Program-made: the position numbers and the translations under genes
Origin: a virus
Length of the DNA stretch: 64,000 bases
Virus record (IMG/VR): IMGVR_UViG_3300017963_000242
Location: 15,804-79,803 of that record
Strand: one strand, 5' to 3'
Shown: positions 23,319-43,484 of the stretch, piece by piece
How the letters are laid out: each line of letters opens with the position of its first letter
Numbering within the stretch: position 1 is the first letter of the stretch
Notes under the pieces: generated by a model
The model's input: only the letters and a program-made list of their open reading frames with translations
What the model was told of the DNA's origin: nothing
Database searches by the model: none

Positions 23319-23393
23319 CGGTAGCCCTTTCTATACAATTGTTAAAGAACCCGGTTCTCTGTCGGCTCACTGGCCGCCCTTTCTGGTCTTTTA

Positions 23394-23636: not shown

Positions 23637-23826
23637 TCGCATTCTCTTTCTATGCCCGCAAGTCCGGCTGTATGCCGATACGCACGCTCGCCCTCCCAAC
23701 AAACCATTTTCCCGAAGCGACGCCTGCACTTTGATAGACGGCGCTTCCACCACCGCCCGACGCCCTCCCGTTCCCATTTCTGGCTGAACGAAACATACCA
23801 CGCAGTTGAATGGTCTGTCCTGCTCA

Positions 23827-24228: not shown

Positions 24229-24563
24229 TCTGCCTGGTCATCCTCTGGCGGTTCGTATCCAAACTTGTCACACAGCGATAGATATTCCATACGCAGCGCC
24301 TTTCTTTTGTCCAGTTCTCCAAGCCCTGCCAGAACGATGGACGACGCTTTGGGTCCGAACTCCACATCCTTCTCTTGTACGGCGTCTTGCTTCCACCGCA
24401 CCGCGTTTTCTTCCGTGTAGAACTCTAGCGCCGCGTGCTCTTCTTCTGTGAAAGACAACTCGCGTTCTAGGTCGCGCACGATTCGCAGGGTAGTGACATC
24501 GCCCTGCTGCGGCATAACCCGCAGCAGGACCATTCTTTCAAGGACCGATAGTTTCAGATTCAT
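24225..24563 (-). CDS. Hypothetical protein
   Basis: 112 aa, coupled to neighbouring genes. Confidence 0.6.
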   Translation of the reverse strand: MNLKLSVLERMVLLRVMPQQGDVTTLRIVRDLERELSFTEEEHAALEFYTEENAVRWKQDAVQEKDVEFGPKASSIVLAGLGELDKRKALRMEYLSLCDKFGYEPPEDDQAE

Positions 24564-24592
24564 TCGCTGTCGTCTTTCTGGCCTTGTCAGAC

Positions 24593-25720
24593 CTACCGAT
24601 TATGCCCCACATGGATGTAGTCCACGTCCACCGTCTTGGACGCCGTGCCATCGCCGCACGCGATGATCGTCGGATACAGGTTCGTGTTCGGCGTAACTCC
24701 GCCACCCGATAGCGTGGCTTTCAGTACATCATCCACATAGAACGTACACGTCCCACCGCCGACACTGACCTCGATACGAAGTTTCTGATACGTGTCTGCC
24801 GTTGGCCCCGATGCCATCGGATCATTGGTCGTGTCCTCGACCGTGCTATCCACGGCACACGCGTGCCAACTACCCGCTGCGGTAGCTGCTGCATCGTACA
24901 GAAACACCACCGCGTCATTCGCAGCAGCAGCATATGCCGTACCGGTGCAAGTGTATGGTTCCTCCAGGGTAGTCACGTCCGTCAGGCCAAAGTTAACCCT
25001 CGCGTTTGCGATAGCGGTATTGATGTGAAGTCTTGCCTCTACAAACAGCCCGCCGCTATCCGCCTGAACTGGGACTGCGCCAGCAAATTGACTCCCATCC
25101 CGTGCTGTCGTTCCATCATCGTCGCCTGTGACCAACTGGAGAACCCCATTTTCTTGCGCGCTGATAGCTGGATCTGCTGCCGTACCAGATGCGCCAGAGT
25201 TCAGCACCCACGGCGTGTAGGTCGCTGCGATGGTCTGGTAGTTAAAGTCGTCAAAGATTTCCCAAAAGTAGGACCGGTCGATTCCTGCTTGAGGTTCTAG
25301 CGGCTTGCCGACCTCGACACGCTCTACTCCATCCGATGTATTGAATGCGATATACTGATTTGATCCTTGCATGACGCGGAATGCGCCGCTATCGTTGTCC
25401 GCTACTGACAAGTCGACGCCGGTCGTTCCGTCGTGCAGGATATTCGCGTCCTGGTCCGCGCCAAAATAAACGCCTTTGCTATCCGACAGATAGACACTAC
25501 CCCATTCTGCGCTCGTGCTGCCCAAGTCGGACCCGCCGCCCGTTGCGGGCAGAATGTCCTTCGTATTCGCAATCGTCAAGTCGTCGGACAACGTTACCGT
25601 GCCGTCGAATGTGACTGCGCTTTGCGGATTGTGTAGCGTATCAACCAGATCGTCGTTCTGGTCGGTTGGGTTCCGCTCCCAAAAGTTGTTTTTCAGTGCC
25701 GCACTTGTTCGTGCAGTCAT
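24593..25720 (-). CDS. Putative virion fibre/decoration protein with lectin-like C-terminal domain
   Basis: DILP....DLGS....W repeat; FDDF...VDVDYI jelly-roll pattern; located in the neck region. Confidence 0.55.
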   Translation of the reverse strand: MTARTSAALKNNFWERNPTDQNDDLVDTLHNPQSAVTFDGTVTLSDDLTIANTKDILPATGGGSDLGSTSAEWGSVYLSDSKGVYFGADQDANILHDGTTGVDLSVADNDSGAFRVMQGSNQYIAFNTSDGVERVEVGKPLEPQAGIDRSYFWEIFDDFNYQTIAATYTPWVLNSGASGTAADPAISAQENGVLQLVTGDDDGTTARDGSQFAGAVPVQADSGGLFVEARLHINTAIANARVNFGLTDVTTLEEPYTCTGTAYAAAANDAVVFLYDAAATAAGSWHACAVDSTVEDTTNDPMASGPTADTYQKLRIEVSVGGGTCTFYVDDVLKATLSGGGVTPNTNLYPTIIACGDGTASKTVDVDYIHVGHNR

Positions 25721-25730
25721 GTCCCTACTC

Positions 25731-26255
25731 CTATAATTTCAACCTCGAACCGCCGCCTCTTATGCTCACGGCCTTTGGTTGTCTCTTTACCATCTCGTGA
25801 CGCAGTTTTTTGCCCATCGCGTGAGCTGCTTCGCTTTTATGTGAATCTATCGCAGGTCGCAAGTACGGACGTGCTGGGATTGTGTACGTCGTGGATAGTG
25901 CCAGCGCCCGCCACATGCCCTCATTCGTTTCGTACCACTTTGCCCAGAAGAATTTTCGCTGCAGCTCCGTGATAACCTGATTCTCTAGCCCGTACTCGTG
26001 AGCGGCAGAGTATACGATGTCAAACTCGACATTCGCTGCATACTGGTTGACCATCACGATCTTGCCGCTGTCCTCCAACGCGCCCGTCTGATTCTCAAAG
26101 TTCGCGCGTACATTGGCCTGGGCGGCTTCTAGAATGACCTCAGCACCAGCTTTGACCGCTGTCACTGTGAGCTTTCCAGGCGCTTGGCTAGCCATGTACC
26201 TGAAATAGCCGGTCAATTCTTTGACGCCGGTTACTCGCTCTTTAGCGTGCGCCAT
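25731..26255 (-). CDS. HK97 gp10-like neck protein
   Basis: TGALEDS, YSAAHEYG, IPARPYLRPA. Confidence 0.8.
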   Translation of the reverse strand: MAHAKERVTGVKELTGYFRYMASQAPGKLTVTAVKAGAEVILEAAQANVRANFENQTGALEDSGKIVMVNQYAANVEFDIVYSAAHEYGLENQVITELQRKFFWAKWYETNEGMWRALALSTTYTIPARPYLRPAIDSHKSEAAHAMGKKLRHEMVKRQPKAVSIRGGGSRLKL

Positions 26256-26620: not shown

Positions 26621-27073
26621 CTAGCTCTGATCACTTCTATCTGGCGGCACAAAAGTCGTGCCAGCGAAATCGTAGAATCCGATTTCTCGCAACCCAGCTT
26701 TCTTGAGTCCCAACTTGGCGAGCTTGCCTGAGCAGTCAATCATTTTTGCGTTCTGTCCGTATAGGCTTGCGTCTAGCCCTAGCCCATCCGAGCCGCGATA
26801 AGTGATTGACCACTCGCCGCCTACGCTCTCGCTTTTAGCGGACCCTTCCCGTAGCGTGATAAAGTGCGCGGCAAGGAGTTTCATGATATCGCATTCCATG
26901 TTGCTCCCGCCACACGAACCAAGATCACCCGAGATGAGCCGAGTCACGTTGTACGCCATATTGATGAACGCATTGATCTGTGCGTCCGTCAAGTCTGTGC
27001 TGATGATCTCACGCACCTCGTCCGCATCCATCGTCGGACATACAACTGTGACCCCGGCCAGTAGAGTTGCCAC
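26621..27073 (-). CDS. Head-tail connector protein
   Basis: LAAHF...SESVG..SITY...L..S.YGQ. Confidence 0.75.
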   Translation of the reverse strand: MATLLAGVTVVCPTMDADEVREIISTDLTDAQINAFINMAYNVTRLISGDLGSCGGSNMECDIMKLLAAHFITLREGSAKSESVGGEWSITYRGSDGLGLDASLYGQNAKMIDCSGKLAKLGLKKAGLREIGFYDFAGTTFVPPDRSDQS

Positions 27074-27076
27074 AGG

Positions 27077-27301
27077 CTAGCCTCCGGTTGCCAGGCGCAG
27101 CCGCCCGATGTCCACAAGCGGCTGCGCAGCTTCCGGCATCAGCATGATTTCTGTGCCCGCTGGCACATAGACTTGCTCGCCCTTCGGCTCGTCTCTGTCG
27201 GTCGCCGCCTTGGTTTGATTCCAGAGCCACATTCCCTTTTCAGGATTGTTTGCTCCCGGCGCTGCCGTCACGACGTATTTTTTCATTCCCGCTGCTGGCA
27301 T
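27077..27301 (-). CDS. Hypothetical virion-associated protein
   Basis: 74 aa directly after the capsid gene, with RBS. Confidence 0.55.
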   Translation of the reverse strand: MPAAGMKKYVVTAAPGANNPEKGMWLWNQTKAATDRDEPKGEQVYVPAGTEIMLMPEAAQPLVDIGRLRLATGG

Positions 27302-27359
27302 ACTATGCCCTTTCTACCGTGCTAGAATTCCAGCACAGTGATATATGCTATGTATCGTA

Positions 27360-28397
27360 CTACGCACCCGTAAAATATACCACGCCTGAATTCCCGTTAT
27401 AGTCACTTTTAATGCGTGGCGCGCCGATGGACATCACCTTGAAGTTCTGTGCCATTCCGTCCGGGCTGGTCCACTCGACTACCTGGTTGAGCTGGTAGAC
27501 GCAGAAGTCCAGTACGTTCGGCGTCATCTGAACACCCACCAGCGTACCGGCGGTCATCCAGTCTGACGGATAAACGGCAGCGATTCCAGCCATCTTGAGA
27601 ACGCGGGTTAGGCCGCTGTCGCCAGTGCCGTCCGCGAAGAAGTTGAGCGCCATTTCGTTGTACTGCGTCCGCGCTACCCAGAACTCGTAAGGGCCAAAGT
27701 AATTATCGCCCGCCAGCGCGATAATCATATTTCGGAAAGTCGGCGTGATATTCGCCAGCGTCCCAAAGTCGCCCGTGGCCGCGCCAGTATTGATATTCGG
27801 TTCGTTTGTGATACCGTACAATACATTCTGGTTCAGCGCGATATTCGTATTCCCGGCAAAGCCGATGCGCTCCATTTCCTCGGTCACGACGCGGCTCGCC
27901 TCGAATGCGTTAGTGGTGTCGATGCCGGAGCCATAGGCCCGGCTGGCCTCCAATTCGCGCATCCCGATTTGAAACTCTTTGTGGATGACCGGGATAGGCA
28001 CGCCGGTCAGGTTATAGTCCTGCCGGTCGAAGTCCGGCGCAGCGCGCCCCGAAAGGCTGACCGTTGCCCGCGTCATCTCGGACCCCTGGTTGTACTGGCT
28101 GACCAGCACGCCCATCGAGTTGAGATTCTTGCGCAACTGCGGGTCGCCATTCAGGCGCGAGATAAGGTTCATTTGCCCGGTTGCCGCAACCTGTACTGCG
28201 TCGTCCAGCGATTCCCACTCGTCTTTGCGGAGTAGGGAGTTGGTGACTAGCCCGCGCCCGTTGGTGATCTGCACGAAACCTTGCTCGTTCGTTACCAACT
28301 CTTGCGTGCCGTCAGGGTTCTGCCGCGCCATTGGCACGTATCCACCGATCTGCTGCAATTGGCTGATCGGGTTGATTGTTGCTTTTTCAATAGTCAT
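27360..28397 (-). CDS. Major capsid protein (HK97 fold, encapsulin/linocin-like)
   Basis: LRKDEW..LD, PIPVIHKEF.I..REL.ASR, YGITNEPN; follows protease and decoration genes. Confidence 0.85.
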   Translation of the reverse strand: MTIEKATINPISQLQQIGGYVPMARQNPDGTQELVTNEQGFVQITNGRGLVTNSLLRKDEWESLDDAVQVAATGQMNLISRLNGDPQLRKNLNSMGVLVSQYNQGSEMTRATVSLSGRAAPDFDRQDYNLTGVPIPVIHKEFQIGMRELEASRAYGSGIDTTNAFEASRVVTEEMERIGFAGNTNIALNQNVLYGITNEPNINTGAATGDFGTLANITPTFRNMIIALAGDNYFGPYEFWVARTQYNEMALNFFADGTGDSGLTRVLKMAGIAAVYPSDWMTAGTLVGVQMTPNVLDFCVYQLNQVVEWTSPDGMAQNFKVMSIGAPRIKSDYNGNSGVVYFTGA

Positions 28398-28405
28398 TGT
28401 ATCTC

Positions 28406-28867
28406 CTACACAATCCGCACGCGGAGTCTGGTGTCCGTTGCACACACCAAATCCTCGTGAGGCACACCGACGATGATCAGGTCCGCAGACCCGCTCGTGC
28501 TAACGCGCAGCGTTCCATCGCCGTTAGAAACCAAGCGCGAACGACCACGAACCGCCGTGCCAGTCGCCAGGTACATGTACAGCAAGTCGCCCGGTAGCGC
28601 ATAGATGTAGCGCACGGTGTCCGCCGTCAGATACGGCGAGTCGATGGCCGCTGCGGCATTGTCGTCGTCGAACGGGTTTTCGATAGCAACCATTCGCTGA
28701 TGAAAGCCAGTCCCGGTTGCATGCGCGACCAGATGCTCGTTTGCATCGTACTCAATGAGATAGCCGGGGATAATCGTCCCCGACCCGTAATCCTCTTGCA
28801 CGCGGCCCTCAATATTGAACGGCACGGCGGTGCTGAGAACAATGGTATGATCCGTTGTGCTCGACAT
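28406..28867 (-). CDS. Capsid decoration/cement protein
   Basis: Lies between protease and capsid genes; IIPG.LI, LVSNGDGTLR. Confidence 0.7.
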   Translation of the reverse strand: MSSTTDHTIVLSTAVPFNIEGRVQEDYGSGTIIPGYLIEYDANEHLVAHATGTGFHQRMVAIENPFDDDNAAAAIDSPYLTADTVRYIYALPGDLLYMYLATGTAVRGRSRLVSNGDGTLRVSTSGSADLIIVGVPHEDLVCATDTRLRVRIV

Positions 28868-28870: not shown

Positions 28871-30325
28871 CTACTTCTCCTTGCCCGCCCGGTTGCCGCT
28901 CCACGCGACGATTGGCCGGGTATCCTGTTTTTGATTGGCGGTTGGCCCGCCTTCTTGTCCCGCATACGAGCGCGGCATCAGAGAACGCGCCAGTTTTTGC
29001 AGCGTAGGAACATCCTGCCGCTCTAGCTCGTCCTTGCTGAACGCGCATCGCTCGTTGGCCGCAAGTTCCGAGACCAACCTGGCCTTTTCGCTTGCCTGCG
29101 CCTCCTGGTGCGCTTTCACCACGTCCTTGGACGCTTCCAACTGACTCGACAAATCCGCAACCAGTTTTTCCAGCGTAGCCATGCGCTCTTCTTGCGCTGC
29201 GACTGCATCTGCACACGGTTGTTCGTTGCCTGTCGGCTCCTCTTCTTCCGGCTCATCGGCGGCCTTGGCGGCTTCCGTCTCCGGCGTTTGTTCCTCTTGT
29301 GGCATCGGCTCATCCTCTTTTTCTGGCTTGTCCTCTTCCGGTTCGTCTTCCTTGTCCGGTTTGCCAAACGCATTGAGAATTTTGCGCAGCACATCTGCGG
29401 ATAGGGCTTCAAACCCCTCCGCGTTATCGTCTGCGTTCAGCTCAAGGCGAGTGCAGAGGTCTTTTACCAAATCGGCTTTACTTTTAGCCATTGTCTCTAC
29501 ATCCTCCGAGATGTCTGTTCCGTCGTCTATACCTAACGCACTCGCCAAGATGTGCAGTGCGCCTTTCACAATGTTTTTCTTTGGCGCGTCGTTTCCGACT
29601 GCCTGTTTTCCCATATCCGTTTCCTCCGCCTGGTACACCAACTCGGTCGGCTGTGACCAGATCATTGTATCTGTGCAAGGCTCCCCCGCCTCATTCACTC
29701 GCGGACACCCGCAACCGTCCTCCCACGAACACGCACCAACTGAGTCGAGAAGCGCGGCGAGATGGTCTGGTCGCAGGTTTCTAGCTACTCCATTGTAGGA
29801 CTGGCCTTGCCATTCACCGCCGCGCTTCTCCAAGTCCCGAAAGTAGCCGGTCGAAACTTCTATCTTGTCTCCGTCCAGCACGCGCCGCATCAGTTCAGGC
29901 CCGCCTTTTAGCTTGCCCGCTCTGTCTACGTCGATCCACAATTCTGCTGGAACGGACTGGTCGCTCTCTCGATATTCAGTGCCAAACACGTACCCGGCGC
30001 GATGTTTTTCCATCATTGCCGGATCGTTGGCACTGACAGCCGTATCGCCCTCGTGTGGGTGATCAATGACGAACGGGCGACCATTCCACGCTGCTGGGAA
30101 CTTTGCCAACTCTTCAGCTGGCACGAGTTCGCCGTTGAGTACACCTTCTCTAATCATCACGGTCGGGACAACTAGCCAGTCGCGGCCTTCCCAACTTGTG
30201 CGGTATGTTTTGTCTACTGTGTTTGCTTGCACCCTATTGGTCGATTGATTTGGTTTTTGTATTTTGACGTTGCCCTTGCGCCAAGAAAATCTAGCCGTTC
30301 TGTCTTTCATATCGACCCTTGTCAT
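28871..30325 (-). CDS. Prohead protease/scaffold (DUF2213-like)
   Basis: EGVLNG, DHP, EVSTGY, PDHLAAL...GACSWEDGCG; acidic coiled-coil C-terminus. Confidence 0.85.
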   Translation of the reverse strand: MTRVDMKDRTARFSWRKGNVKIQKPNQSTNRVQANTVDKTYRTSWEGRDWLVVPTVMIREGVLNGELVPAEELAKFPAAWNGRPFVIDHPHEGDTAVSANDPAMMEKHRAGYVFGTEYRESDQSVPAELWIDVDRAGKLKGGPELMRRVLDGDKIEVSTGYFRDLEKRGGEWQGQSYNGVARNLRPDHLAALLDSVGACSWEDGCGCPRVNEAGEPCTDTMIWSQPTELVYQAEETDMGKQAVGNDAPKKNIVKGALHILASALGIDDGTDISEDVETMAKSKADLVKDLCTRLELNADDNAEGFEALSADVLRKILNAFGKPDKEDEPEEDKPEKEDEPMPQEEQTPETEAAKAADEPEEEEPTGNEQPCADAVAAQEERMATLEKLVADLSSQLEASKDVVKAHQEAQASEKARLVSELAANERCAFSKDELERQDVPTLQKLARSLMPRSYAGQEGGPTANQKQDTRPIVAWSGNRAGKEK

Positions 30326-31299
30326 TCTTCTAACCCCATCACTATTTCTCTTGGGTCACTGTCGTACCCGGTATCACTCAATACCGTGAATGGTTTACCT
30401 CTTGCAAGTAACAATTCAGTTTCAGACGGCCTGCTCTGTAATTTCCATCGGTCCATATACAACGCCTGAGCGCCCTTTGGTAATCGTATCTCAATCGTGG
30501 CCCCTGTTGAGCGCTGTTCCGCTACACCTTTATATAAAGCTGTTGACACAAAAGCATCATCTGTCCAAGTGCTACCAGTCAAGTCTTCATCATAGTCATC
30601 CAACATCTCTACATCTATGCCCCGATAAACCGTAACCGGTTCAGGAAGACTCGACCTTTCTAGAGCCGCGTCAATTCGCTCCACGTCATCACTATAGGCT
30701 TCGCTATATCCAGCTTCTCGCAAATCATCATTGATGTCGTAGTATCCGTCACCTTTATACATTTCTAGAGATGCGGATTCTTCGTCTGATAGTTCTGGAT
30801 TCAATCCGCTTTGAGCAGAAGCCCAATCATCTGCTTCTCTGCGAGAGCCAAAAGACCTTCCGCCCAAACTGCCTTTCCCGTGCGTGCCCGCTGGCGGGCC
30901 ATGCCACCCCTTTCCCGGCCCTTTCTTTCCCGCGTTATCCTCTACGACCTCGACTTCCGCTTCCATCATCGCCCCACACTCTGAGCATTTAATCGAGCGA
31001 CACGGAACACCGCGTTCCTTCTCTACCACGTGCCCGCAGTCTGGACACACACACCGCTCTGGCCCCCCTGGCGCTGGCTCAACGCCTGGACCGTAGGCGA
31101 ACTCTGATGTATCGTCATTTTCTTTCAGCATAGCCCCATTTGCCTGCTTGAACGCCTGACCCTCACAGTCCTCTCCGCCGCTGTCATTGCAATCCTGGTA
31201 TGTGTCCATCCACACAGCAACCCAAGTTGCTCGCTTGTCCTCCGGCAGTTCCTTGACGTGCTGCGGTAACGATTTGTCTCCCGGTCCACTGTATGGCAT
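30322..31299 (-). CDS. ChaB-like / Zn-ribbon / VIP2-like ADP-ribosyltransferase fusion
   Basis: N-terminal ChaB-like (LPQHVKELP...AFKQAN); CVCPDCG..PC..CSECG; R-S-E catalytic motifs VYRG, FVSTA, ETELLLARG. Confidence 0.8.
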   Translation of the reverse strand: MPYSGPGDKSLPQHVKELPEDKRATWVAVWMDTYQDCNDSGGEDCEGQAFKQANGAMLKENDDTSEFAYGPGVEPAPGGPERCVCPDCGHVVEKERGVPCRSIKCSECGAMMEAEVEVVEDNAGKKGPGKGWHGPPAGTHGKGSLGGRSFGSRREADDWASAQSGLNPELSDEESASLEMYKGDGYYDINDDLREAGYSEAYSDDVERIDAALERSSLPEPVTVYRGIDVEMLDDYDEDLTGSTWTDDAFVSTALYKGVAEQRSTGATIEIRLPKGAQALYMDRWKLQSRPSETELLLARGKPFTVLSDTGYDSDPREIVMGLEE

Positions 31300-31361
31300 C
31301 TTACCTCGCCAGTGTCCACGCTGCCAGCCACATCAAAGCAGTCAGCAGTCGCGCTTTCCAT

Positions 31362-31946
31362 TTAGTCATGCTGTGCGATCACCAGATGCCACTTTATATC
31401 CGATGTGCTCGTGTATGTCGGCGTGCCCTCGGTTTTTGCCTGGGTGTACAGGTCTGTAACACCCGCACCTAGCACAAACGGAAACGGTGGATTGCAGACA
31501 TAGGTTGCTACGGAGTTGTCTTTGAACGACACATATGTACCGGATCCAACAGAAATCACCCCCAGGCTGTTCAGCAAATCAGCATCAGATATATCAAGCT
31601 CTGCATCGTTAGCCGTCGGTGTAAACGTGCCTGAAAAAATCACCAGATCAAATGCGGCATTCTGTGCGCCTTTGTCCGTGATGACCACTTTGCGAATCTC
31701 TCCGTGTCCGCCTTCGCCGTCTACCACGTCCTCGAATTTCATCAGGCCGCCAACAGCATCCCCAGCAGCATAAGCCGTTCCAGACGTAATAGTCGGTGTC
31801 ACGTCTACTCGCGTCAGTTCAAGCTGCGACCGTGCTTCAATTCGGCCAGTCGTGTCTACGCGCAGCGGATACCGCGTTCCGCCTGCATTCTCTCCGAATA
31901 CAAGCTGAACTCCGCCGCCCTTGTCCTCAAAGTCGGTCGTTGCCAT
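31362..31946 (-). CDS. Hypothetical virion protein
   Basis: 194 aa beta-rich protein (AYAAGDAVGG) with RBS GAGG. Confidence 0.6.
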   Translation of the reverse strand: MATTDFEDKGGGVQLVFGENAGGTRYPLRVDTTGRIEARSQLELTRVDVTPTITSGTAYAAGDAVGGLMKFEDVVDGEGGHGEIRKVVITDKGAQNAAFDLVIFSGTFTPTANDAELDISDADLLNSLGVISVGSGTYVSFKDNSVATYVCNPPFPFVLGAGVTDLYTQAKTEGTPTYTSTSDIKWHLVIAQHD

Positions 31947-31958
31947 AGTTCCACCTCG

Positions 31959-32014
31959 GAAACAAAAAAGGCCACTCCCATCCAGAACGTTCCCGTTCCG
32001 GGTAGAAGTGGCCT
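31959..32014 (-). terminator. Long-stem intrinsic terminator in the leader of the head-tail operon
   Basis: GGCCACTTC...GAACG GGAA CGTTC...GAGTGGCC followed by a T-tract on the minus strand. Confidence 0.7.
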
Positions 32015-32124
32015 CCGAAAAATCGTATGCCTATATGAGGTTATGATTGCTCTTAGCTGGACTCCCTGGCGTTGACGCTTGGGTGGGAATCCCTGATTGT
32101 TACGCGCCCATCCGCGCTAAGAAT

Positions 32125-32153
32125 ATTATAGCAGGTTTGCGGCACGATGTCAA
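32125..32153 (-). promoter_or_regulatory. sigma70 promoter
   Basis: TTGACA-17 bp-TATAAT with extended TG. Confidence 0.85.
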
Positions 32154-32159
32154 GCTATT

Positions 32160-34346
32160 CTATAATTTGCCCTCGCACCGCTTGATATGCGCGACCTGCT
32201 TGGCAATCGTTTTGTCACTCGGTCCACGTCGCTTAATCCAGAGCAGCTTTTCCGATGTCGTTGGTGATAATCCAAGCTGTTGTTCATAGACGGCAAGCTG
32301 GGCTAACGTGACGCTGCGCAAGTTCATCAGGTATGTGCGGTCTTGCATAATAGACCCGCCTTCTGCTTTTATGTCGCTATCGCCCACGTCATCCTCCGTA
32401 CAGCCGTACATTATCCCAAGTTATCCCAAGTCAGCGAACTAGCCCTGCCAACAGCGGGTCGTCGACTGGCCGAGCATCGTCTTGCGCCGATGCCATTTCT
32501 CGCCTCAAGATGTCATCGCCATTCGGCGGTATCCGTTCCACATCCACGGCAAATGGAATGAACTCATTGATAGCGGTCTGCTCTCGCTCGAATACTAGAG
32601 TAGTCACATACTCTGACAATCTCATCGCAGCGGCATCGAGAACCGACCATCCAGTCACGAACCGCCAGCCCTCAGCGGCTGTCTGATTCAGACTCTCTTC
32701 CACTTGCCCCGATGTCAAATCGTGACGCAATACAACCGTTTTATACTGCTGCTCCATCACTCGCCTTTCTGCGATGCATATGCGTTTCTCATAAACTCTG
32801 CTTGCATCGCAATCGTCATCTGCATAGACTGTGAGTCAGTGAATCCTGCCTCACGACATACAGCATAATATTGAAAGTAGGTTTGTGCCATAGCCCGCAG
32901 TTCTTGAACGCCTTCGTCCTTGAGCAATTCATCCAAGTATTGCTGCCACGGGTTTTCCGGTTCAGGTTTGTGTCTAGCCATTGATTAGTCTTCCGTTCCG
33001 ATTCTCAACCCAGTTCCCTCGTGAATCAGGTAGAGCTTGCCATCATTGCCGAACTCATAAAAGCATTCGATGTCCATAGTCTTGATGATCTCGTTCGCTT
33101 CAAGAACAAAATCGTGCCGTTCTGCTTGGTTACTCAAGTTTTTGATTGCGGGTCTCAACCCGGAAAGTAGTTCAATGGCTCGCCAGTTCAGCGCCTTCTT
33201 GCGTGCCCATTCTTTTCTGCAAATCGGGCACTTTGGAAACCCTTGCGGCCAATCTACATAATGTTCTGCTGCCACATACTGATGTCCATGTTCACACCAT
33301 ATCAAGCCGGTCATTGCCTACCTTTCTGTTTGGAATCTTTCAACGCGCCCCAATCCAACCTCGAACGATGTAAACTTTTCGTCGTGACGAAATGACTCAG
33401 CTATACCCAAATCTTCTTTGAGTATGTTTCCGTCTTTGACAAATCGAATATCCATATCTGAGACTGGAACGGTCAGATGCTTGTCTATCACGATGTACGT
33501 ATCTGGCGCAGTCATTGGTTCGCCTTTCCGTTTGAATCATCTGCACTTGCGGAAAAGTGCTGTGATTTTTATACAATGTCTCCATAGCCAGTGAACTGGA
33601 CGCGCCCAGCGATTCGGCCACTGTACGTCGTAGCCCGGTGCGTGTACATCAAAGCTAACTTGTACAGCGTCCTCTATTTCTTGCTGTGTCGTCTGATTGA
33701 TAGTTGCACGCTGCATAGTAATGGTCGGTTGAAACCATTGCCGCCCTGGCTTATAGGTTATCGTACTCGTCGGTCGATGCTCTCGCACAAGCATGTCCCA
33801 TATAGTATCCCAACCTCCCGATACGTTTTCAACATCGAAGCTGTACTCGGTCTGCAATCCGGTTATATCTAGCTTGTTACTTGGAGGCTGTTCGCACTCG
33901 TCTGCAATAAGACCGTAGCCCACTCGCTCATCATTTATGAATATCTGTGCTGTCCCCGCCTTGCTCATTCCTGCTACCATCGTCAAGCCTTTCTGCTATT
34001 CAATCGAAATCGACATTGAAAGCAATGGTTCCATGCTGCCCAGTCCCTTGAATGCTCGTATACGGTCAAGGCCCGGAATCGTCCACGCTTGCCTAATGAG
34101 GACCATAAGTGCATCCTCTTGTGTGAACCCCTCACCTGATGGCATGACCACCGCTGCGTATGGGCTGTCCGTTACCCACGAGTCATGGCAGATCGCACAC
34201 CGCCACAGTGTCCTATTCACGCCTGATTCGCATTTGTACTCGATTGAGTACCCACACTCTCGCAGTAGTGCCTCAAGTTGTTCTTTTGGAGTCGGATAAA
34301 GACTGGTTGGCATTCCCGATGCCGAAACGCTTATATCCATTGTCAA
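32160..34346 (-). CDS. Run of seven small hypothetical genes (32160-32348, 32431-32760, 32757-32981, 32985-33314, 33318-33515, 33537-33986, 33996-34346)
   Basis: Closely packed co-oriented ORFs with AAAGG-type RBS; no recognisable family. Confidence 0.55.
32397..32430 (-). repeat. Dispersed 34-bp repeat, copy 2 (inverted)
   Basis: Reverse complement reads CTTGGGATAACTTGGGATAATGTACGGCTGTACG. Confidence 0.9.
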
Positions 34347-34352
34347 GCCTTT

Positions 34353-35006
34353 CTACTCTCCTAGCCACAAGTCGGCGCAGTTTAGCTTTCCACGTTGCTT
34401 ATAATTCATAGACCAAAAATGTGGGCAGTTTGGATGGAATTTTCCAGGATTCGCCATTGCCACACGAATGGGGACGTTGCCTCGCGCAATCCAGCCTTGG
34501 CAGATAGGACACACGGCAGTTCTTGGTTCTAGCCTCGCTGTCCCCTCTTGTAGCCCGTTCATCTGAACAAAGTCCTGCTGTGCCTGAGTGCGCCCGTCGC
34601 CCTCTACCATCTGTGCGATCTGCACATCCTTCCACGCTGCCCGTTTCTCGTACCATCCCTCTAGCCGCTTTGCATACGTGTACCTGTTCGCCGTTGGTGT
34701 CTCTTGTCGGATGTGCGCGATTGCGATAGCCAGGTCATAGTTGTATGTGTTGACGATGGATTCCGCGTGCCACCGCGATTTTTCATTTAGCTTGGATAGG
34801 ATAGGCCCCTCTCGCACCCCGCCCACGCGATTGCACCCAGCCCGACGCGCCTGAATATTCAACTCATCATTGTACGCCGCACGCATATCCCGCAACAACG
34901 ACCCGCGTATGCTCTCGACATCGAATGCATCATATCGCGCCGCCAGGTGAACCAGCTTGCCCACGTCGCTCAAGTCGCCAACCGCTGCGCGCCAGTCTCT
35001 AGCCAT
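34353..35006 (-). CDS. MuF-like minor head morphogenesis protein
   Basis: VCPIC...HPNCPH motif; downstream of the portal. Confidence 0.65.
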   Translation of the reverse strand: MARDWRAAVGDLSDVGKLVHLAARYDAFDVESIRGSLLRDMRAAYNDELNIQARRAGCNRVGGVREGPILSKLNEKSRWHAESIVNTYNYDLAIAIAHIRQETPTANRYTYAKRLEGWYEKRAAWKDVQIAQMVEGDGRTQAQQDFVQMNGLQEGTARLEPRTAVCPICQGWIARGNVPIRVAMANPGKFHPNCPHFWSMNYKQRGKLNCADLWLGE

Positions 35007-35205
35007 CGTCGTCCTCTACCATTGCTTCTATCAGTGTCGCCAATACATCCTCGGCAGGCGCTCCATCGTCAAGCGCATCCTCAATCGCTTTGCCAAATCC
35101 AGGCCCAGCGTCCACCTCGTTCAACACGAACCAACGCGCCTTGTGCGCTTCTGTCATTGCGCCTAGTAGATAGGATATGCTGCGTCTTGCGTCCAGAGTT
35201 TTCAC
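34999..35205 (-). CDS. Small acidic hypothetical protein
   Basis: 68 aa, coupled on both sides. Confidence 0.5.
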   Translation of the reverse strand: MKTLDARRSISYLLGAMTEAHKARWFVLNEVDAGPGFGKAIEDALDDGAPAEDVLATLIEAMVEDDDG

Positions 35206-35690
35206 GCTGTCACCTCCAAGCTGCCCGACTTTGGCGTCATCCTTGCACCGAGCACGGTCTGAGCAAACGAGTCAGACCCGACCAGATAACCGCGCAACTG
35301 CCCGCCGACCTTGAGCGGCATGTGCCATTGCTGGCTGCGCTCGACCGGCAAGACTGGATTTTGTCTCAGCGTCTTGATTGCGCTCCGCACAGCCTTGTAC
35401 CCTGTGCGCTGGCCTGCTCGCTCCCAAACGTGACCTGGAATCTTACCAAGCGTCTTGCCGTGTGTTCCTTTCGGAGGGCCATGCCAGCCCTTACCTGGGC
35501 CTTTCGCTTGAACCGTCAGTTCATCTTGAGCAACCGTCTCTTGCCACTCGCTATCAGGAATGGCTTTCAGTCGCACCATTGCGTCACCGAACGAACGCAG
35601 CCCCATCTCCGCTACGTTTTTCTTGATGACCCTTCCCAATCGCTCGCGCTGCTTTTTATCCTGCTCAGTCCGCTGCTTACGTGTCGGCAT
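35202..35690 (-). CDS. Hypothetical protein with the KGPGKGWHGPP motif and a basic C-terminal domain
   Basis: 162 aa; H.WER...R pattern reminiscent of RelE/BECR-type RNases. Confidence 0.6.
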   Translation of the reverse strand: MPTRKQRTEQDKKQRERLGRVIKKNVAEMGLRSFGDAMVRLKAIPDSEWQETVAQDELTVQAKGPGKGWHGPPKGTHGKTLGKIPGHVWERAGQRTGYKAVRSAIKTLRQNPVLPVERSQQWHMPLKVGGQLRGYLVGSDSFAQTVLGARMTPKSGSLEVTA

Positions 35691-35898
35691 TCTGGCTGCC
35701 TTCAGCTAGCTCAAATTGAATATCGCGATCTCCTTGAAACGAATCGCGATGATCGTTGTCGCCTTTCCATATTTCTATCGGAATACCCTCTGGAAAAGCT
35801 GCGCATTTTCTTTCCGAACCATCGGTCAAATGCTTACACGTTGAGCACGTCGGACTGTAGATAGGCGTTTCAAATTCCTTGTCAATAGTAAAGGTCAT
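35677..35898 (-). CDS. Small Cys-rich protein of a type found downstream of phage MuF-toxin genes
   Basis: CSTCKH...CAAFPEGIPIEIWKG..DH....GD..IQFE. Confidence 0.7.
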   Translation of the reverse strand: MTFTIDKEFETPIYSPTCSTCKHLTDGSERKCAAFPEGIPIEIWKGDNDHRDSFQGDRDIQFELAEGSQNADT

Positions 35899-38192
35899 TC
35901 AATCACCTCATACGTTAATCCTAGCCCCGGATGATTTTTTGTAAGACGCTCCCATACTTCATGATTATGCAGCATATTAGCCGCCGACGTTGTCGTCTTT
36001 TTATCAAAGATTCTCGCCATAAAGTGCCCTCGAACCTGATCGTCAACAATATCTACCTTGGGCTTTATGTCTTTCCAGGTAGGTGTTTTCTCAGACCTAG
36101 ACATAATATATGTTTTTCCTGTGCTTCCAGCCGCACGAATCGACATTAGTTTTCCATCGGTCAATAGCCTAATATCCGACTCTGAAAAAGAACGCCCGGT
36201 TGGATGGTTATGAGTTAGCACCTTTCCAGACATCTGCGCCACTTCTTTGTCTGTAAACGAAACGGACGAAGCTCCGCCACTTTTTGCAAGCAACTCTTTT
36301 CCTGTTTCTGGATCAAACAGTCCAGCGTGCTCAGTTGGTGAACTTCGGATATATCCCTCTGCGCGCTGAATAGCTTCTTCTGCTATTGGCGACAGCCCGC
36401 CGCTGCCCCCTTTCCCTGCCCCATGTGTCCCTCCCTTGCTTGGCCCCCACCATCCCCGACCCGGCCCCTTGCCGGACTGCGCGACGATGTAACCCACGCC
36501 CTCGACGGTTGGGTCATAGGTTTTTCGACAGTCCGGGTTAGCGCATCGCAGCAGTGGGCCGTGACCTTCATATCTCTCAGCTTTGACAAACCCGCACAAC
36601 GGACACGTGCTGTCCACGATAACCGGCTTGTGCGAACCGATGAACAGAGACGCGATATAATCCTCGTTGGCCCTTGCCCGCTCTGTTTCTTCGTCCGGCT
36701 CTTCCGACGGTGGCTCTACAATCTCCGGCTCTGTCGGCTGCTCCGGCTCATCCGCCCCCGGCTGTTCAACCGGCGCTTCTGGCATGGCAGGTGCTTCCGG
36801 TTCATCGTCCTCCATATCCTCTGGAATGTCCGGCGGGAAACCGACAACCGCGCGCTGCTCTTTTTTAGTGAACGGCGTTGCGCCTTCTGCATCGGCAAAC
36901 TGTTTCATTGCCGTCGCCTTGCGCATCGAAATCGTCGCAGCCTGCTCTTCGTCCGGTGGTATCAGCGGCGGCCAGTGTCGGTTGCCTTCATCGTCGGCCT
37001 TGCCAATCTTATAGCCGTCTGCTGGCTCTGGCAGAACGCCGTACCAGATAAGCCGGTCGCTGAACGGTCTTAGAATGCGCGGCTCTACATAGGTGTTTTG
37101 TCGCCGAGCAATCACGCCCGACCATCGCCGTGTATCCTCTTGGCTGGACGCTAGTTCGCCCGCCGCAGAACCAAACAGTACGTGCATCGGAATTCTCGTG
37201 ATAGCAGCGATGTGTTTCATAAACGCATTGAACAACCCAGTCGGGTCCCACACGTCCGATCCGCCCAACTCAGCTACGTCCATCCCCGGCGCAAACAGGA
37301 ATCGCGCCAGGTCGTGAACGTATGCCTCTAACTGGTCTTTGAACCCGTCTACCACCTTCGCATCACCCAGGTCAAAGTCCCATCCCTCACGAGGCGATAG
37401 CACCGCGCCCTTGCGCTGATTCAACCAAGCTGATTCTGCCGACCCGCCAAGCGTCTTGTAGAGCATATCTATCAACGTGTCGTATGGCCGCTTGAGCCAG
37501 GGCCGACCGTAGACTTCGCTATCCGTGCGAAACTCGGCTATGTGTAACATCCGGGTATAGTGGACGCGCTCGCGGCTATCTTCGCCTACCTGGACATCGT
37601 AGTTCAGCGGATAACCACATCGCTTGGAGGATGGGTCATCGTCTACATCGCCTATCTTTGCCTGTCCTTCGTTCAGCGGTCGCAACCACAAAAGCCCTTC
37701 CGGTCCCTTGACGCTGCCCTTCTCAACCGGCTTAGACAAGTCGGCGTTACCCGCTAGGCCAAACATCAGCGCGCCATAGTTGCCTATCCCTGATGCTGCA
37801 TCGGCTCGCCGCAGTACGTCCCAAATGTAATGACGCTCGACTAGCTCGTTCCACGCACTGACGAACTCGGTATCCTCTTCGTCGTTCTCTGTGACTGCTG
37901 GTGGCTGGCCCCATGAGTCATCAGCGCGAACATCGATGATCTGACCGGCCAAGCCGCCCCTCTCGTATAGCCATAGATAGGAGCCGAAATCCAGTTCCTC
38001 GCTGTAGCCCAAGACGGTTGAGAACCTGCGCGCTCCCTCGTGCGTGCTTGCCCCGCCCATCACCCTGGACCGCCTGGACGGGTCAAATGCCGATGCTTGC
38101 GGCATCAGTCGTTGGCGGTTGGCGGATAGCTGTACCATCCGCAAGAACCGCATCGCACCCGCCGCTTGTTCGTCTGTGAATCTCTCGCTCAT
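35895..38192 (-). CDS. Portal protein (DUF1073-like) with C-terminal Zn-ribbon and JAB/MPN-like extension
   Basis: Follows TerL; YERGGLA..IID, RVHYTR, IP...LFG...GELAS..D; C-terminal E...THNHP...FSESDI. Confidence 0.85.
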   Translation of the reverse strand: MSERFTDEQAAGAMRFLRMVQLSANRQRLMPQASAFDPSRRSRVMGGASTHEGARRFSTVLGYSEELDFGSYLWLYERGGLAGQIIDVRADDSWGQPPAVTENDEEDTEFVSAWNELVERHYIWDVLRRADAASGIGNYGALMFGLAGNADLSKPVEKGSVKGPEGLLWLRPLNEGQAKIGDVDDDPSSKRCGYPLNYDVQVGEDSRERVHYTRMLHIAEFRTDSEVYGRPWLKRPYDTLIDMLYKTLGGSAESAWLNQRKGAVLSPREGWDFDLGDAKVVDGFKDQLEAYVHDLARFLFAPGMDVAELGGSDVWDPTGLFNAFMKHIAAITRIPMHVLFGSAAGELASSQEDTRRWSGVIARRQNTYVEPRILRPFSDRLIWYGVLPEPADGYKIGKADDEGNRHWPPLIPPDEEQAATISMRKATAMKQFADAEGATPFTKKEQRAVVGFPPDIPEDMEDDEPEAPAMPEAPVEQPGADEPEQPTEPEIVEPPSEEPDEETERARANEDYIASLFIGSHKPVIVDSTCPLCGFVKAERYEGHGPLLRCANPDCRKTYDPTVEGVGYIVAQSGKGPGRGWWGPSKGGTHGAGKGGSGGLSPIAEEAIQRAEGYIRSSPTEHAGLFDPETGKELLAKSGGASSVSFTDKEVAQMSGKVLTHNHPTGRSFSESDIRLLTDGKLMSIRAAGSTGKTYIMSRSEKTPTWKDIKPKVDIVDDQVRGHFMARIFDKKTTTSAANMLHNHEVWERLTKNHPGLGLTYEVIE

Positions 38193-39377: not shown

Positions 39378-39803
39378 TCAGTCACACCAACCTCTTTCCC
39401 GGCACTCTCGCTCAAGCGCCGACCAGTTTGTCACACTCACATACGGAATCGGTTGTGTCCACGTGGCCCAATATTCCGGCACGTCTACAGCAATCGGCTG
39501 CCCACCTCGAAACGTCCGGCTTGTCAAATCGCCAGCATCTAACGCCCTGGCCTGAAACGAAGGCCAGCCTACCGGAGAGACTGTCACCCAGTCGCCACAC
39601 ACAACCAGCCCGCTCTCAAACGCCTCTTTCGGAAACGCTACCCAAGGGCCAATTGAGCGGTCATAGACAAGCCCGCTGCCCTGGTCGCAGTACAGCGGAT
39701 TGCCAATGTGTTCCGCCTCTGTATACTGCGTCGCTACACCTGTGTATGTGTATGCGTGTGCTGCTATGAGCGATAGCATTAGGATGTGCATTAGACGACC
39801 CAT
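39378..39803 (-). CDS. Secreted RlpA-like double-psi beta-barrel protein
   Basis: Signal-peptide-like N-terminus; GVATQY, WVA, CGDWVTV, ALDAG, IAVDV. Confidence 0.55.
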   Translation of the reverse strand: MGRLMHILMLSLIAAHAYTYTGVATQYTEAEHIGNPLYCDQGSGLVYDRSIGPWVAFPKEAFESGLVVCGDWVTVSPVGWPSFQARALDAGDLTSRTFRGGQPIAVDVPEYWATWTQPIPYVSVTNWSALERECRERGWCD

Positions 39804-41131
39804 CCTGGTTGCGCCTTGCGCCTCGCCTTACGTGAGAGACGGTCAACGTAGGCGCAGATATAGCGAGTGTAGTCTACAGAATGATCATTTTCTTTCACTG
39901 GAACGTCCTTCGCTTTCTTGTCTGCCCACACATAGCCCGGAATCTCTTCTTCCAGACACGTCGGCGCGTGCGATTCCGACAAAGTGTCGTCCTTGTATCT
40001 CAGGCAGTCTCGAACAATGAATAGCCGGTCCTCTGCAAATCGCTGCTGAACATTCGTAATGCCCGGTAGTACATCCGTAAAAGCCGCTACCGCAGGCAAC
40101 CCAGCGCGCCTAAACTTGGCTATGTACGCCGGTTGTTCTGCGCCACATTGCAACGTCTCGAACTTGAATTCTTTGTACAATTCCTTAGCTCGCTCAAGCC
40201 ACCAGTCATCCGTCTCACCTGTACGATAGAGTTGAGCGACTAGGTACATTCGCCCTTCCCAATCGACGGCAAAGACACCCATCGCGCCCGGATTTCGATA
40301 GCCCCAGTCAATCCCAGCCACATAGCGGTGAATGGCCTGCGGAACATCCACCTGATAAATGAGATGGCGCGACTCGGTATACTGCTCATAGACAACGCCT
40401 TCGGACTGTACCCACCGACCGAAACGTAGACGCTCTTTACGCGCACCCGTCAAACTGTCCAGCTTGGCAATATAGTCTAGCCCGAACTCTGTCCAGCCGT
40501 TCTCATTGTCATATAATAGTGGATTCTCTTCGTGCCGACTATTGAGCAAGGTCATCGCCGGGCCGCTCGACCGTCGCTTGATCCAGTGCTGTGGTGGCCC
40601 TGGGTTACAGTCGCCCAACAGTTGACGATAAGGCATTGCCGTGCCACGCAGTCGAGTAATCAATATCTCGACATCGCCCTCGCTAAACTCTTCAGTTTGT
40701 AGGCACAGCACTAAATCAAATTCGCTCGATAGAATTCGACCGGGCTTATCAATCCCGCCTGTATTGATCTGGCTTCCGTTATCGTAAAGGTAGACTTGGC
40801 GATTTGGCCTCTTGGGACCATTGAGCACCATCGGGTGGTCTAGGCCGAGCACGAACTTTTCAAATGTTTGTAGGCCCGTCTCGCTCAGGCTTGTGCGCGT
40901 CTTGCGTACAATGAGCGCACGAGTACCAGGATATGTTAAGCAGCAGTAGTTTAGCTTCTCAAGGCCAGCGCGTGTTTTGCCTGTCCCGGCAGGTCCAGAG
41001 ATGAGAATGGCCGCCGCCGCGCTTGCCAGTAGTTCAACTTGCGTCCCGCGAGGCGCGTACTTGTTCCTCGGATTGATCCCCTTCGGGATGTCTTTCTCTA
41101 ATCTCTGCCAATACTCGGTGATAGAATGCAT
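39791..41131 (-). CDS. terL: Terminase large subunit
   Basis: GPAGTGKT Walker A, DCNP, GIDWG, NDHSVDYTRY nuclease motifs. Confidence 0.92.
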   Translation of the reverse strand: MHSITEYWQRLEKDIPKGINPRNKYAPRGTQVELLASAAAAILISGPAGTGKTRAGLEKLNYCCLTYPGTRALIVRKTRTSLSETGLQTFEKFVLGLDHPMVLNGPKRPNRQVYLYDNGSQINTGGIDKPGRILSSEFDLVLCLQTEEFSEGDVEILITRLRGTAMPYRQLLGDCNPGPPQHWIKRRSSGPAMTLLNSRHEENPLLYDNENGWTEFGLDYIAKLDSLTGARKERLRFGRWVQSEGVVYEQYTESRHLIYQVDVPQAIHRYVAGIDWGYRNPGAMGVFAVDWEGRMYLVAQLYRTGETDDWWLERAKELYKEFKFETLQCGAEQPAYIAKFRRAGLPAVAAFTDVLPGITNVQQRFAEDRLFIVRDCLRYKDDTLSESHAPTCLEEEIPGYVWADKKAKDVPVKENDHSVDYTRYICAYVDRLSRKARRKAQPGWVV

Positions 41132-42299: not shown

Positions 42300-43484
42300 T
42301 TAAGCCGGGTTGTCGGAACCGGCATAAAGCTCGTTCACCTTCCACCCTACATTGCCCAGCGAAATAGACAGAGCGATGTAGGCGGGATTGACACGAGTGT
42401 CAATCCCGTATGCTGGCAAGTCCTTCCGCGTCCCATCGGGTAACACCGCGCCCCCCACTTGCGCGATTTTGCTTAGATAGTTATTGTCAAAACTTACCAC
42501 ATCGTCACCTAGCGCCGCCATGTGTGCAAGCTGTGCCTTCCAGCTTCCGCCCAGCAGATGAACACGCCGCCCTTTGAACGCCTCTGTAGGCAAAGGTGTA
42601 CCGCCGTGGGAGGTAGGCACAGAGTAGCCCAGCACATAGCGATCTGGTATTTGATCAAGCACGTCCACTTTCGGGATCACAATCACGTTCTCAGCGTACT
42701 GCTCAAGCTCCATCGCCCAATCAAGCACCTGGGGCAATTCGCAGAACTCGATACCGACTTCGTCACACTGTGACTTGCTCATATAATCGCGCACGGTAGC
42801 GTACTTGGGCCGTCCCTCTCGGCAAGCTGCCAAATGCTTACCGTGGTCGTATTTCTCGTAATCGCAATCAACAAACATAAGGCCGTGACTGCCCATTATG
42901 TTCATATTTGGACAAAATGCCTTTCCTGATTGTAGCCCATAGCCGAACCCGGCCATAGCCGCCAAGCAACACGACGCCGGAAAAGTGGCAGTATAAATCG
43001 CATCAATCGGTAGCTGGCGCGGATTCGGTTTGGCGCTCTTCGGTACGCCTAACAAATCTCCCGGCTCATCCCACCCCACCAACTCCCCCTCTTCGAACCC
43101 CCAGTCGAGCAGGTCGGACATCTCGAACGACGACGCCAACTCATCCCAGTCCCACTGGCCCGTCGTGCCCTTGTGCAAGTACACCACCAACTTTTGCCGC
43201 TCTTGCTCCGTCAGCGCCCGCGACGACACGCGCACGTCTACCTCGTAATCCGGGCCAAACTGCGGCAGCACGCTCCACACGAGTTTTCTCTGATGCCCAT
43301 CATACACTTCGTTAGTCGGGCCTATGGCGATGGTTTGAATCTGGCCGAACTCAGCCAGCGACTCGCCCAGCCGCTCGGCCTCACGTTTGTTGATCTCACG
43401 CGGGTTGTGCTCCCACGGAACAAGATCACGTAGCTTGCGGCGCTCATTCGTCCAAGTTATCGGTTCACTGTGCAAGTCGCCCAT
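42300..43484 (-). CDS. ParB-like N-domain fused to a TGT/DpdA-like (DUF6610-like) domain
   Basis: LVPWEHNPR...SL.EFG...DGHQR; C-terminal ATVRD, IVIPK, LGYSVPT, VHLLGGS, VVSFD. Confidence 0.7.
   Translation of the reverse strand: MGDLHSEPITWTNERRKLRDLVPWEHNPREINKREAERLGESLAEFGQIQTIAIGPTNEVYDGHQRKLVWSVLPQFGPDYEVDVRVSSRALTEQERQKLVVYLHKGTTGQWDWDELASSFEMSDLLDWGFEEGELVGWDEPGDLLGVPKSAKPNPRQLPIDAIYTATFPASCCLAAMAGFGYGLQSGKAFCPNMNIMGSHGLMFVDCDYEKYDHGKHLAACREGRPKYATVRDYMSKSQCDEVGIEFCELPQVLDWAMELEQYAENVIVIPKVDVLDQIPDRYVLGYSVPTSHGGTPLPTEAFKGRRVHLLGGSWKAQLAHMAALGDDVVSFDNNYLSKIAQVGGAVLPDGTRKDLPAYGIDTRVNPAYIALSISLGNVGWKVNELYAGSDNPA

Follow-up and report, generated by a model that had tools for sequence, protein, structure and literature searches.

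Proteins injected into the host together with phage DNA act before phage gene expression and rank among the first candidates for a role in counter-defence or takeover of the host. Known targeting peptides are lineage-specific, the capsid-targeting sequence (CTS) of phage T4 among them, so that injected proteins are difficult to identify. In T4 this sequence is carried by the internal proteins IPI-III and Alt and is removed by the prohead protease gp21. In the Dar antirestriction system of phage P1 the helicase/methylase DarB is packaged through an N-terminal signal, while encapsulins load cargo by peptides that are usually C-terminal and dock inside the HK97-fold shell. For the polyvalent proteins of phages, packaging, processing by a peptidase embedded in the protein and subsequent injection have been proposed (Iyer, Burroughs, Anand, de Souza and Aravind, 2017; PMC5512222). 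Here a peptide tag with the core GW-PPKGTH is described from three proteins encoded in the head module of a phage known from the IMG/VR virus record IMGVR_UViG_3300017963_000242 (G000; 79.8 kb, rated 94% complete). The stretch analysed, referred to as the window, has 64,000 nucleotides and corresponds to bases 15804-79803 of that record; megablast against deposited phages found none closely related to it. The motif is a real, modular tag, conserved at the protein level, which lies in head modules and precedes interchangeable enzymatic domains.

A six-frame regular-expression search together with a degenerate DNA pattern found KGPG[KR]GW[HW]GP..GTHG in exactly three copies, whether the window or the full 79.8-kb record was searched; all three are in frame and on the minus strand:

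30877..30924, minus strand: tag copy 1, KGPGKGWHGPPAGTHG, residues 126-141 of a 325-amino-acid open reading frame (ORF), followed by the Gly-rich tether KGSLGG
35457..35504, minus strand: tag copy 2, KGPGKGWHGPPKGTHG, residues 63-78 of a 162-amino-acid ORF
36420..36470, minus strand: tag copy 3, KGPGRGWWGPSKGGTHG, residues 575-591 of a 765-amino-acid ORF, with one added residue before GTH and followed by the tether AGKGGSGG

The preliminary description of this DNA had reported a near-identical motif on three otherwise unrelated proteins, with codons that differ between the copies, and both observations hold. The three DNA copies show a mean column identity of 73% with exact runs of about 11 nt, and since they differ mostly at synonymous, third positions, conservation is at the protein level. 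All three tagged genes lie inside the 11-kb head module running from the terminase large subunit (TerL) through portal and protease to the major capsid protein (MCP). Chance or low complexity as the origin of the tag was ruled out by the finding of 0 matches in 100 dinucleotide shuffles, and GC-rich off-frame matches were easily distinguished. An origin as a known domain was likewise ruled out, with Pfam and PHROGs silent over the tag in every protein tested.

To place the tag beyond this phage, metagenomic, bacterial and phage sequences were searched. The first degenerate-pattern scans of IMG/VR gave a few true tag matches amid GC-rich off-frame noise; these included a portal-tag-ADP-ribosyltransferase (ART) protein followed by a second tagged gene (L012) and a homologue of the 162-amino-acid protein (L014). 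Two further loci encode a 1746-amino-acid protein with the tag at its start and an SNF2-type helicase at its end (P0012, from L018) and a 689-amino-acid protein whose tag is at residue 489 (L028). A tag profile run through a word index recovered 25 proteins, and an exhaustive HMMER search with the profile returned 163 protein clusters at E<=1e-3 among 1.84 billion representatives. A broader DNA pattern yielded 46 metagenome loci, 46/46 of them with true in-frame tags and many with two or three adjoining tagged genes. It had been anticipated that a pattern or profile search would place the motif in head modules before variable enzymatic domains, and this was the case in the 163 clusters and 46 loci; random occurrence, a location outside virion modules and a lack of variable domains behind the motif, which had been named beforehand as findings that would speak against the idea, were not seen. 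The complete 77.7-kb phage G003 carries five tagged proteins and a pseudogene copy, clustered around TerL and portal. Four of these proteins, namely an ART, two DUF3626 paralogues and one without assignment, start with MKLTLKGSSSSGWY..GTHTGEKHR, and the fifth is a protein in the portal position with an internal tag.

Among the bacterial species-representative genomes of GTDB (about 185,000) the tag pattern was present in one contig only, L057 (JAISYH010000035.1, 1236-7999, from a Burkholderiales metagenome-assembled genome), which is probably phage DNA binned with the bacterial sequences. This contig encodes a MuF-like protein and an adjoining giant polyvalent protein of at least 1210 amino acids with two tags and a zincin motif, HEWFH, whose post-tag domain is shared with the 1746-amino-acid helicase protein. 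In INPHARED, tblastn with the tag and the 162-amino-acid protein gave nothing, a result in which the low-complexity filter may hide the tag, and the portal-fusion query matched through its portal domain only. With a single bacterial contig and none in deposited phages, the tag looks specific to uncultured, probably virulent, phages, and its near absence from bacterial genomes indicates that these are not typical prophages. As literature strings, GWWGP and GWHGP occurred only in unrelated papers, and no description of a conserved junction peptide was found in the papers on polyvalent proteins (PMC5512222) and MuF toxins (PMC5576092).

Alignment of 157 instances on the tryptophan (position 0) gave the following composition:

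upstream: a short hydrophobic stretch (L/I/V/T)
-7/-6: K or E
-5: G in 139/157
-4: P in 109/157
-3: G in 132/157
-2: S, R or K
-1: G in 157/157
0: W in 157/157
+1: aromatic or His
+2: G, A or S
+3: P in 157/157
+4: P in 156/157
+5: mostly K or R
+6: G in 157/157
+7: T in 153/157
+8: H in 157/157
after +8: Gly-rich, frequently GxGSQGG or GEKHRxVGSGK

The complete tag is thus about 25-30 residues long and consists of a hydrophobic strand ending in K/E, G-G-P-G-[SRK], G-W-[WFYH]-[GAS]-P-P-[KR]-G-T-H and a Gly-rich tether. In AlphaFold2 (AF2) models of two unrelated proteins, the 162-amino-acid protein and the portal fusion, the tag has a predicted local distance difference test (pLDDT) score below 50 and the flanking domains are confident. 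A disordered tag with Gly-rich residues after GTH is, as modelled, the layout of a tethered docking peptide. It should also be noted that in G002, the record of L018, giant proteins and a RadC/JAB protein beside the tagged helicase protein (51482-63657, minus strand) carry another repeated leader, roughly LLLVKAGPxKxRPGLxLRxLTDxxGHxTxRW or MMLLLKTRVRGH. This leader has in common with the GW-PPKGTH tag only the start, a hydrophobic strand plus K, so the strand may be what the two leaders share, with a second half that can be swapped.

The tag always stands on the N-terminal side of a module. It forms a C-terminal tail in 0/219 tag proteins and lies within 35 residues of the start in 128/219. 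Where it is internal, it is preceded by one of these carriers:

PF06381 portal: 8 proteins
second portal-like family adjoining TerL: 3 proteins
MuF-like minor head protein: 6 proteins
small helical N-domain: 7 proteins
another cargo unit

At least 11 portal-type fusions bear the tag, and portal C-termini point to the capsid interior. Two or three tags are present in 11 proteins, which are strings of tagged units. Behind the tags, 231 units fell into 83 BLAST clusters, of which the largest are:

RelE-like domain: 21 units
HExxH zincin peptidase: 20 units
kinase-like: 19 units
GNAT: 15 units
PF03496 ART: 15 units
JAB-like: 11 units
DRAT-like: 11 units
DUF3626: 8 units

A Pfam tally over 150 tag proteins was in agreement and gave PI3/PI4-kinase-like 11, PF03496 ART 10, DUF3626 6, ART 4, DRAT 3 and PARP 2, with GNAT, HipA-like, ATLF, ParB_N, Prok-JAB and ART-PolyVal as further cargo, a repertoire which, judged by family assignment, is typical of effectors. 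The commonest Pfam cargo match was the PI3/PI4-kinase-like (atypical kinase) domain, with examples in P0027, P0075-like proteins and L082:3153-4610.

Carriers and cargo are combined freely. The same cargo family may stand alone, after a portal, after a MuF-like protein or between two tags; the zincin, for instance, was found stand-alone, behind the small N-domain and behind the portal. The JAB domain forms part of the portal protein in this phage and in P0119, and in L082 it is encoded by a separate tagged gene which overlaps the end of the portal-like gene. Conversely, one carrier takes several cargoes, as with portal-tag-JAB in this phage and portal-tag-ART in L012 and P0118. The preliminary description had stated that the cargo does not ride on MuF itself. 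This is true of the three proteins in the window, which have other N-terminal parts, and no match to PF04233 (MuF) was found in G000 at E<=1, but relatives carry a MuF-like-tag-ART protein and a MuF-like-tag-kinase protein. The shuffling of domains on both sides of the tag and the arrays of adjoining tagged genes would also fit a junction of the pre-toxin type, like VENN of CdiA or DPxGL of Rhs, that is, a hinge for cassette exchange by recombination with no specific partner. Such a hinge is very unlikely to be the explanation, given that the DNA copies within this genome are only 73% identical with short exact runs and that the amino-acid sequence is conserved across very distant phages; the two findings together point to selection on the peptide itself.

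The three cargo domains in the window agree with those predicted earlier, at differing levels of support. For the ART behind tag copy 1, PF03496 matches residues 158-307 of the 325-amino-acid protein (E=7e-25, 87.9 bits vs a gathering cut-off of 23.4; also phrog_3895), and the R-S-ExE catalytic triad is present (YRG at 225, STA at 252, ETE at 293), so that by profile score and triad the protein is a predicted member of the PF03496 ART family. Its N-terminal part contains one recognisable element:

30976..31053, minus strand: Cys4 zinc ribbon (CVCPDC...CSEC), about 17 residues upstream of tag copy 1

This ribbon shows 56% identity over 36 residues to a zinc ribbon in a head-module protein of phage G003. 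The N-terminus had been described as a ChaB-like carrier, a resemblance seen by eye only which Pfam did not confirm, as no ChaB match was obtained for the whole protein (E<=0.01) or for residues 1-63 (E<=0.5).

For the 162-amino-acid protein, AF2 modelled a long N-terminal helix (residues 4-42), a low-confidence segment around the tag (residues 49-76, pLDDT <50) and an alpha-alpha-beta-beta-beta domain (residues 77-160). The top 15 VIA matches of the C-terminal domain were almost all RelE/ParE/HigB/YoeB toxins, at Z 5.0-5.8 (the caution level of the tool is 8) and a root-mean-square deviation of 2.4-4.2 A; Foldseek gave E of about 0.4, and there was no Pfam PBECR match. A predicted RelE/ParE-like fold is therefore suggestive, not conclusive, and the "basic RNase-like domain" proposed earlier for this protein stands to that extent, with the fold in its favour and Pfam silent. 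The family of this protein was present in 11/25 of the first-found tag proteins.

The 765-amino-acid protein is a portal fusion with the following parts around tag copy 3:

36906-37976, minus strand: portal domain (residues 73-429; PF06381, phrog_146), followed by an acidic linker
36528-36605, minus strand: zinc ribbon, after the acidic linker and before tag copy 3
35898-36395, minus strand: JAB/MPN-like domain (residues about 600-765), after tag copy 3, from AF2 and Foldseek

The AF2 model of the JAB/MPN-like domain has pLDDT 86. Among the Foldseek matches listed, nearly all were JAB/MPN/RadC chains (PfJAMM1, RadC, Rpn11, AMSH, Cap3), with a probability of up to 0.99 and a best E of only 8.6e-3. 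In 10 homologues, collected from the tag proteins by local jackhmmer, E622 and HNHPTGRSFSESD (residues 661-673) are conserved, giving an E..HxH..S..D pattern; the spacing of the metal motif is x6 vs the canonical x7 (E...HxHx7Sx2D), and no Pfam match was found at E<=0.1. A word-index search for homologues of the JAB domain of similar length found none. Structure prediction thus supports the JAB/MPN fold suggested earlier for the C-terminal domain of the portal, while Pfam does not register it and the best Foldseek E value is modest.

The reading we favour, and to which we assign a probability of roughly 55%, is that by analogy with known systems the tag is a capsid-cargo address and/or a processing tag. 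In these phages, which are uncultured and apparently do not integrate, it marks every enzymatic cargo unit on its N-terminal side, standing either at the very start of stand-alone proteins or at the joint between an enzyme and a head-internal carrier (the portal C-terminus, a small helical domain, a MuF-like protein or the cargo unit before it). There it would bring the unit into the procapsid during assembly and/or show where it is to be released from the carrier; the cut may lie behind the K/E in front of the Gly run. We infer that tagged proteins are packaged, cleaved and ejected; in this phage the ADP-ribosyltransferase and the RelE-like domain would be delivered into the host with the DNA, and the JAB peptidase anchored on the portal would either be delivered as an effector itself or process cargo inside the head. 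More generally, peptidase cargoes of the JAB and zincin types may act in processing instead of being effectors.

Several points weigh against this reading. There is no virion proteome, isolate or structure for any tag-bearing phage. The scaffold/protease and the MCP of this phage showed nothing like the tag, which is therefore not the general maturation site. All-against-all BLAST of four long tag-bearing genomes found almost no common head proteins; DUF2213 and PF04233 MuF are likewise not common to the tag-bearing genomes, protease families differ between them, and clustering of the neighbours of 48 loci brought out no universal partner. If the tag bound a scaffold peculiar to each phage, the two should diverge together, but GW.xPP.GTH, the core of the tag, shows almost no variation. 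This invariance is partly by construction because the instances were picked by profile and regular expression, whereas the specificity of the DNA-pattern matches is independent of that selection. With almost no detectable head proteins or protease family in common and a core that hardly varies, the partner must be structurally very conserved, or else be a host factor, the active site of an enzyme or a nucleic acid. Finally, targeting looks redundant for cargo that is already fused to the portal, which there favours a role in release or cleavage.

The last point bears on the possibility that the tag is a processing site only, at which a peptidase (the prohead protease or a JAB/zincin cargo) separates polyprotein units or frees cargo without any targeting. 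The tags lie exactly at unit boundaries in the proteins with two or three tags and in the portal and MuF fusions, the K or E at -7/-6 follows a hydrophobic strand and GG motifs occur behind the tag, and peptidase processing of polyvalent proteins has been proposed (Iyer et al., 2017; PMC5512222). In addition, the most frequent cargoes include peptidases of the zincin (HExxH, 20 units) and JAB-like (11) kinds, often as the portal-fused one, which complicates a simple targeting-peptide reading. Against processing alone, a cut would remove just 6-20 residues from the 128/219 proteins with the tag at the extreme N-terminus, the complete phages G001 and G003 are tagged yet without recognisable HExxH or JAB cargo, and the protease families vary as noted. 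We consider processing without targeting unlikely.

The extreme conservation of the core across phages without detectably related head proteins, and the disordered, Pro/Gly-rich nature of a tag with aromatic and His anchors, could also be expected of a short linear motif that acts after delivery or in the infected cell, binding a highly conserved host component or nucleic acid and thereby localising or activating many different phage enzymes. This would leave the recurrent fusion to portal C-termini and MuF-like proteins and the clustering in head modules unexplained, and a host partner was suggested by none of the searches, so it appears quite improbable.

A bolder form of the capsid-address reading is that GW-PPKGTH is a portable cargo code across lineages, in which about 25 residues would load any protein into procapsids built of unrelated head proteins and then allow its release and injection. 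The code would dock to a structurally conserved feature of the portal, MuF protein or HK97 fold, or to the DNA itself. This is a tentative idea, possible rather than probable. If it is true, hundreds of unrecognised injected effectors (kinase-like, DUF3626, DRAT-like, ATLF-like) could be identified from sequence alone and a generic means of loading proteins into phage capsids would be available.

Sugar-nucleotide and glycosyltransferase genes are present in the structural region of the window at 13000-26000 (e.g. 16541-17728, 22155-23318), and similar genes stand directly beside tagged genes elsewhere, as in L059:1582-4041 (an 820-amino-acid triple glycosyltransferase directly upstream) and in G003 (11157-12224, 14122-15934). 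They may serve glycosylation of virion or DNA, or be linked to the tag. Their recurrence beside tag genes, together with the nearly invariant Thr of the tag and the Ser runs in some lineages, would suit a sequon for post-translational modification, for example glycosylation by the nearby enzymes. The co-occurrence may just reflect lineage, G001 and L057 have no such neighbour beside the tag gene, and the tag has no resemblance to known sequons, which makes a sequon highly improbable. The commonest untagged neighbour family, found in five contigs, has weak Pfam matches only (glycosyl-hydrolase-core-like, HpiC1-like) and occurs in G000 (11664-12509 and 15285-16370, the latter corresponding to window 1-567), G003 (26951-27730), L062:3590-5212 and L082:5287-6846.

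The head module itself was delimited from ORFs and their Pfam and PHROG matches and occupies 27-41 kb of the window on the minus strand. Its gene order is as follows:

39791..41131, minus strand: terminase large subunit (PF04466, PF03237, phrog_2), the upstream boundary of the module
35895..38192, minus strand: 765-amino-acid portal fusion (PF06381 E=1e-33, phrog_146 E=3e-59)
35677-35898, minus strand: 73-amino-acid Cys-rich protein (CSTC...C.AFPEGIP), overlapping the portal-JAB gene at its end and the 162-amino-acid gene at its start
35202..35690, minus strand: 162-amino-acid protein (long N-terminal helix, tag, predicted RelE/ParE-like fold)
34999-35205, minus strand: 68-amino-acid ORF, between the 162-amino-acid gene and the minor head protein gene
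34353..35006, minus strand: 217-amino-acid putative minor head protein, between portal and protease
30322..31299, minus strand: 325-amino-acid ADP-ribosyltransferase protein (PF03496 E=7e-25)
28871..30325, minus strand: DUF2213 head protease/scaffold (PF09979 E=6e-7), directly downstream of the tagged ART gene
between the protease/scaffold and MCP genes: 153-amino-acid protein, placed by gene order
27360..28445, minus strand: major capsid protein (DUF6260/HK97-like; PF19774 E=1e-28, phrog_771, phrog_264)

The DUF2213 protein also matches phrog_760, phrog_12864 and phrog_530 ("head maturation protease"). The 217-amino-acid protein has no Pfam or PHROG match and resembles MuF by eye only, in its Cys/His-rich C-terminus; several small genes separate its gene from that of the ART. 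The 68-amino-acid ORF is similar by eye to the N-terminus of a 304-amino-acid protein of G001 (86621-87535; common stretch MT.EHKAR...LNEVD), which, again by eye, runs on into a segment resembling ChaB and a protease region of the XkdF type. The similarity suggests that a protein associated with the head protease has been split here or survives as a remnant. A gene at 42300-43484 on the minus strand, a little upstream of the terminase region, encodes a 394-amino-acid protein with a ParB-like nuclease or methyltransferase-type N-terminal domain. A 1016-amino-acid tape-measure protein is encoded at 8874-11924, from which it follows that the phage is long-tailed.

With a conserved tag of high specificity, injected effectors could be listed directly from metagenomes. 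The tag links at least 83 cargo clusters to head-internal carriers, among them families without a known role in phages (PI3/PI4-kinase-like, DUF3626, DRAT-like, HipA-like, ATLF-like), and provides a testable handle on the loading and release of polyvalent and portal- or MuF-fused effectors.

Of the described systems, the CTS of T4 is comparable in being a short common N-terminal peptide on unrelated proteins, an ADP-ribosyltransferase included, which are encoded among head genes in polymorphic cargo arrays. A common leader of this type on unrelated head-module proteins was found here as well, within 35 residues of the start in 128/219 proteins and before 83 cargo clusters. The two peptides are unrelated in sequence; the present tag is longer (about 25-30 residues), rich in Gly, Pro and Trp and predicted to be disordered, and it also occurs internally behind portal, MuF-like and other modules. 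Moreover, the T4 peptide is confined to its lineage, whereas the tag, known here from sequence alone, is conserved across phages with unrelated head proteins. With the Dar system of P1 it shares the very large helicase-containing protein with an N-terminal leader (P0012, 1746 amino acids, SNF2-type, starting with the tag), but there is no sequence similarity, and an ordered incorporation pathway of the Dar type is not known for the tag phages. The cargo-loading peptides of encapsulins are similar in that a short conserved peptide on a flexible Gly-rich tether serves diverse cargo enzymes. They differ in being usually C-terminal and of another consensus, whereas the tag is N-terminal to its cargo, and docking to the MCP is only an analogy.

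The polymorphic MuF toxins also combine a head-internal carrier with a C-terminal domain of variable kind, toxic or enzymatic (Jamet et al., 2017; PMC5576092), an arrangement seen in the MuF-like-tag-ART and MuF-like-tag-kinase proteins of relatives. Those toxins belong to temperate prophages (PMC5576092), whereas the tag has one match in about 185,000 species representatives, and PF04233 was not detected in this genome. The polyvalent proteins are similar in content, as ART, JAB/RadC, BECR-type RNase, ParB, GNAT, helicase and zincin domains are strung together or fused to portal or MuF among late genes (PMC5512222). Two or more domains per polypeptide among late genes were found here in the portal plus JAB and zinc ribbon plus ART proteins, in the relatives with two or three units and in L057, where the giant protein with HEWFH adjoins the MuF-like gene. 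Peptidase features are represented by the zincin cluster of 20 units and by HEWFH in L057, with one weak LPD1 match (E=1.5e-3, below the cut-off); no zincin was found in this window. The difference from polyvalent proteins is that most units here are small stand-alone proteins with the tag at their start. By analogy, the tag is probably an undescribed address or cut-here peptide of the kind known from the T4 CTS, P1 Dar and the polyvalent proteins.

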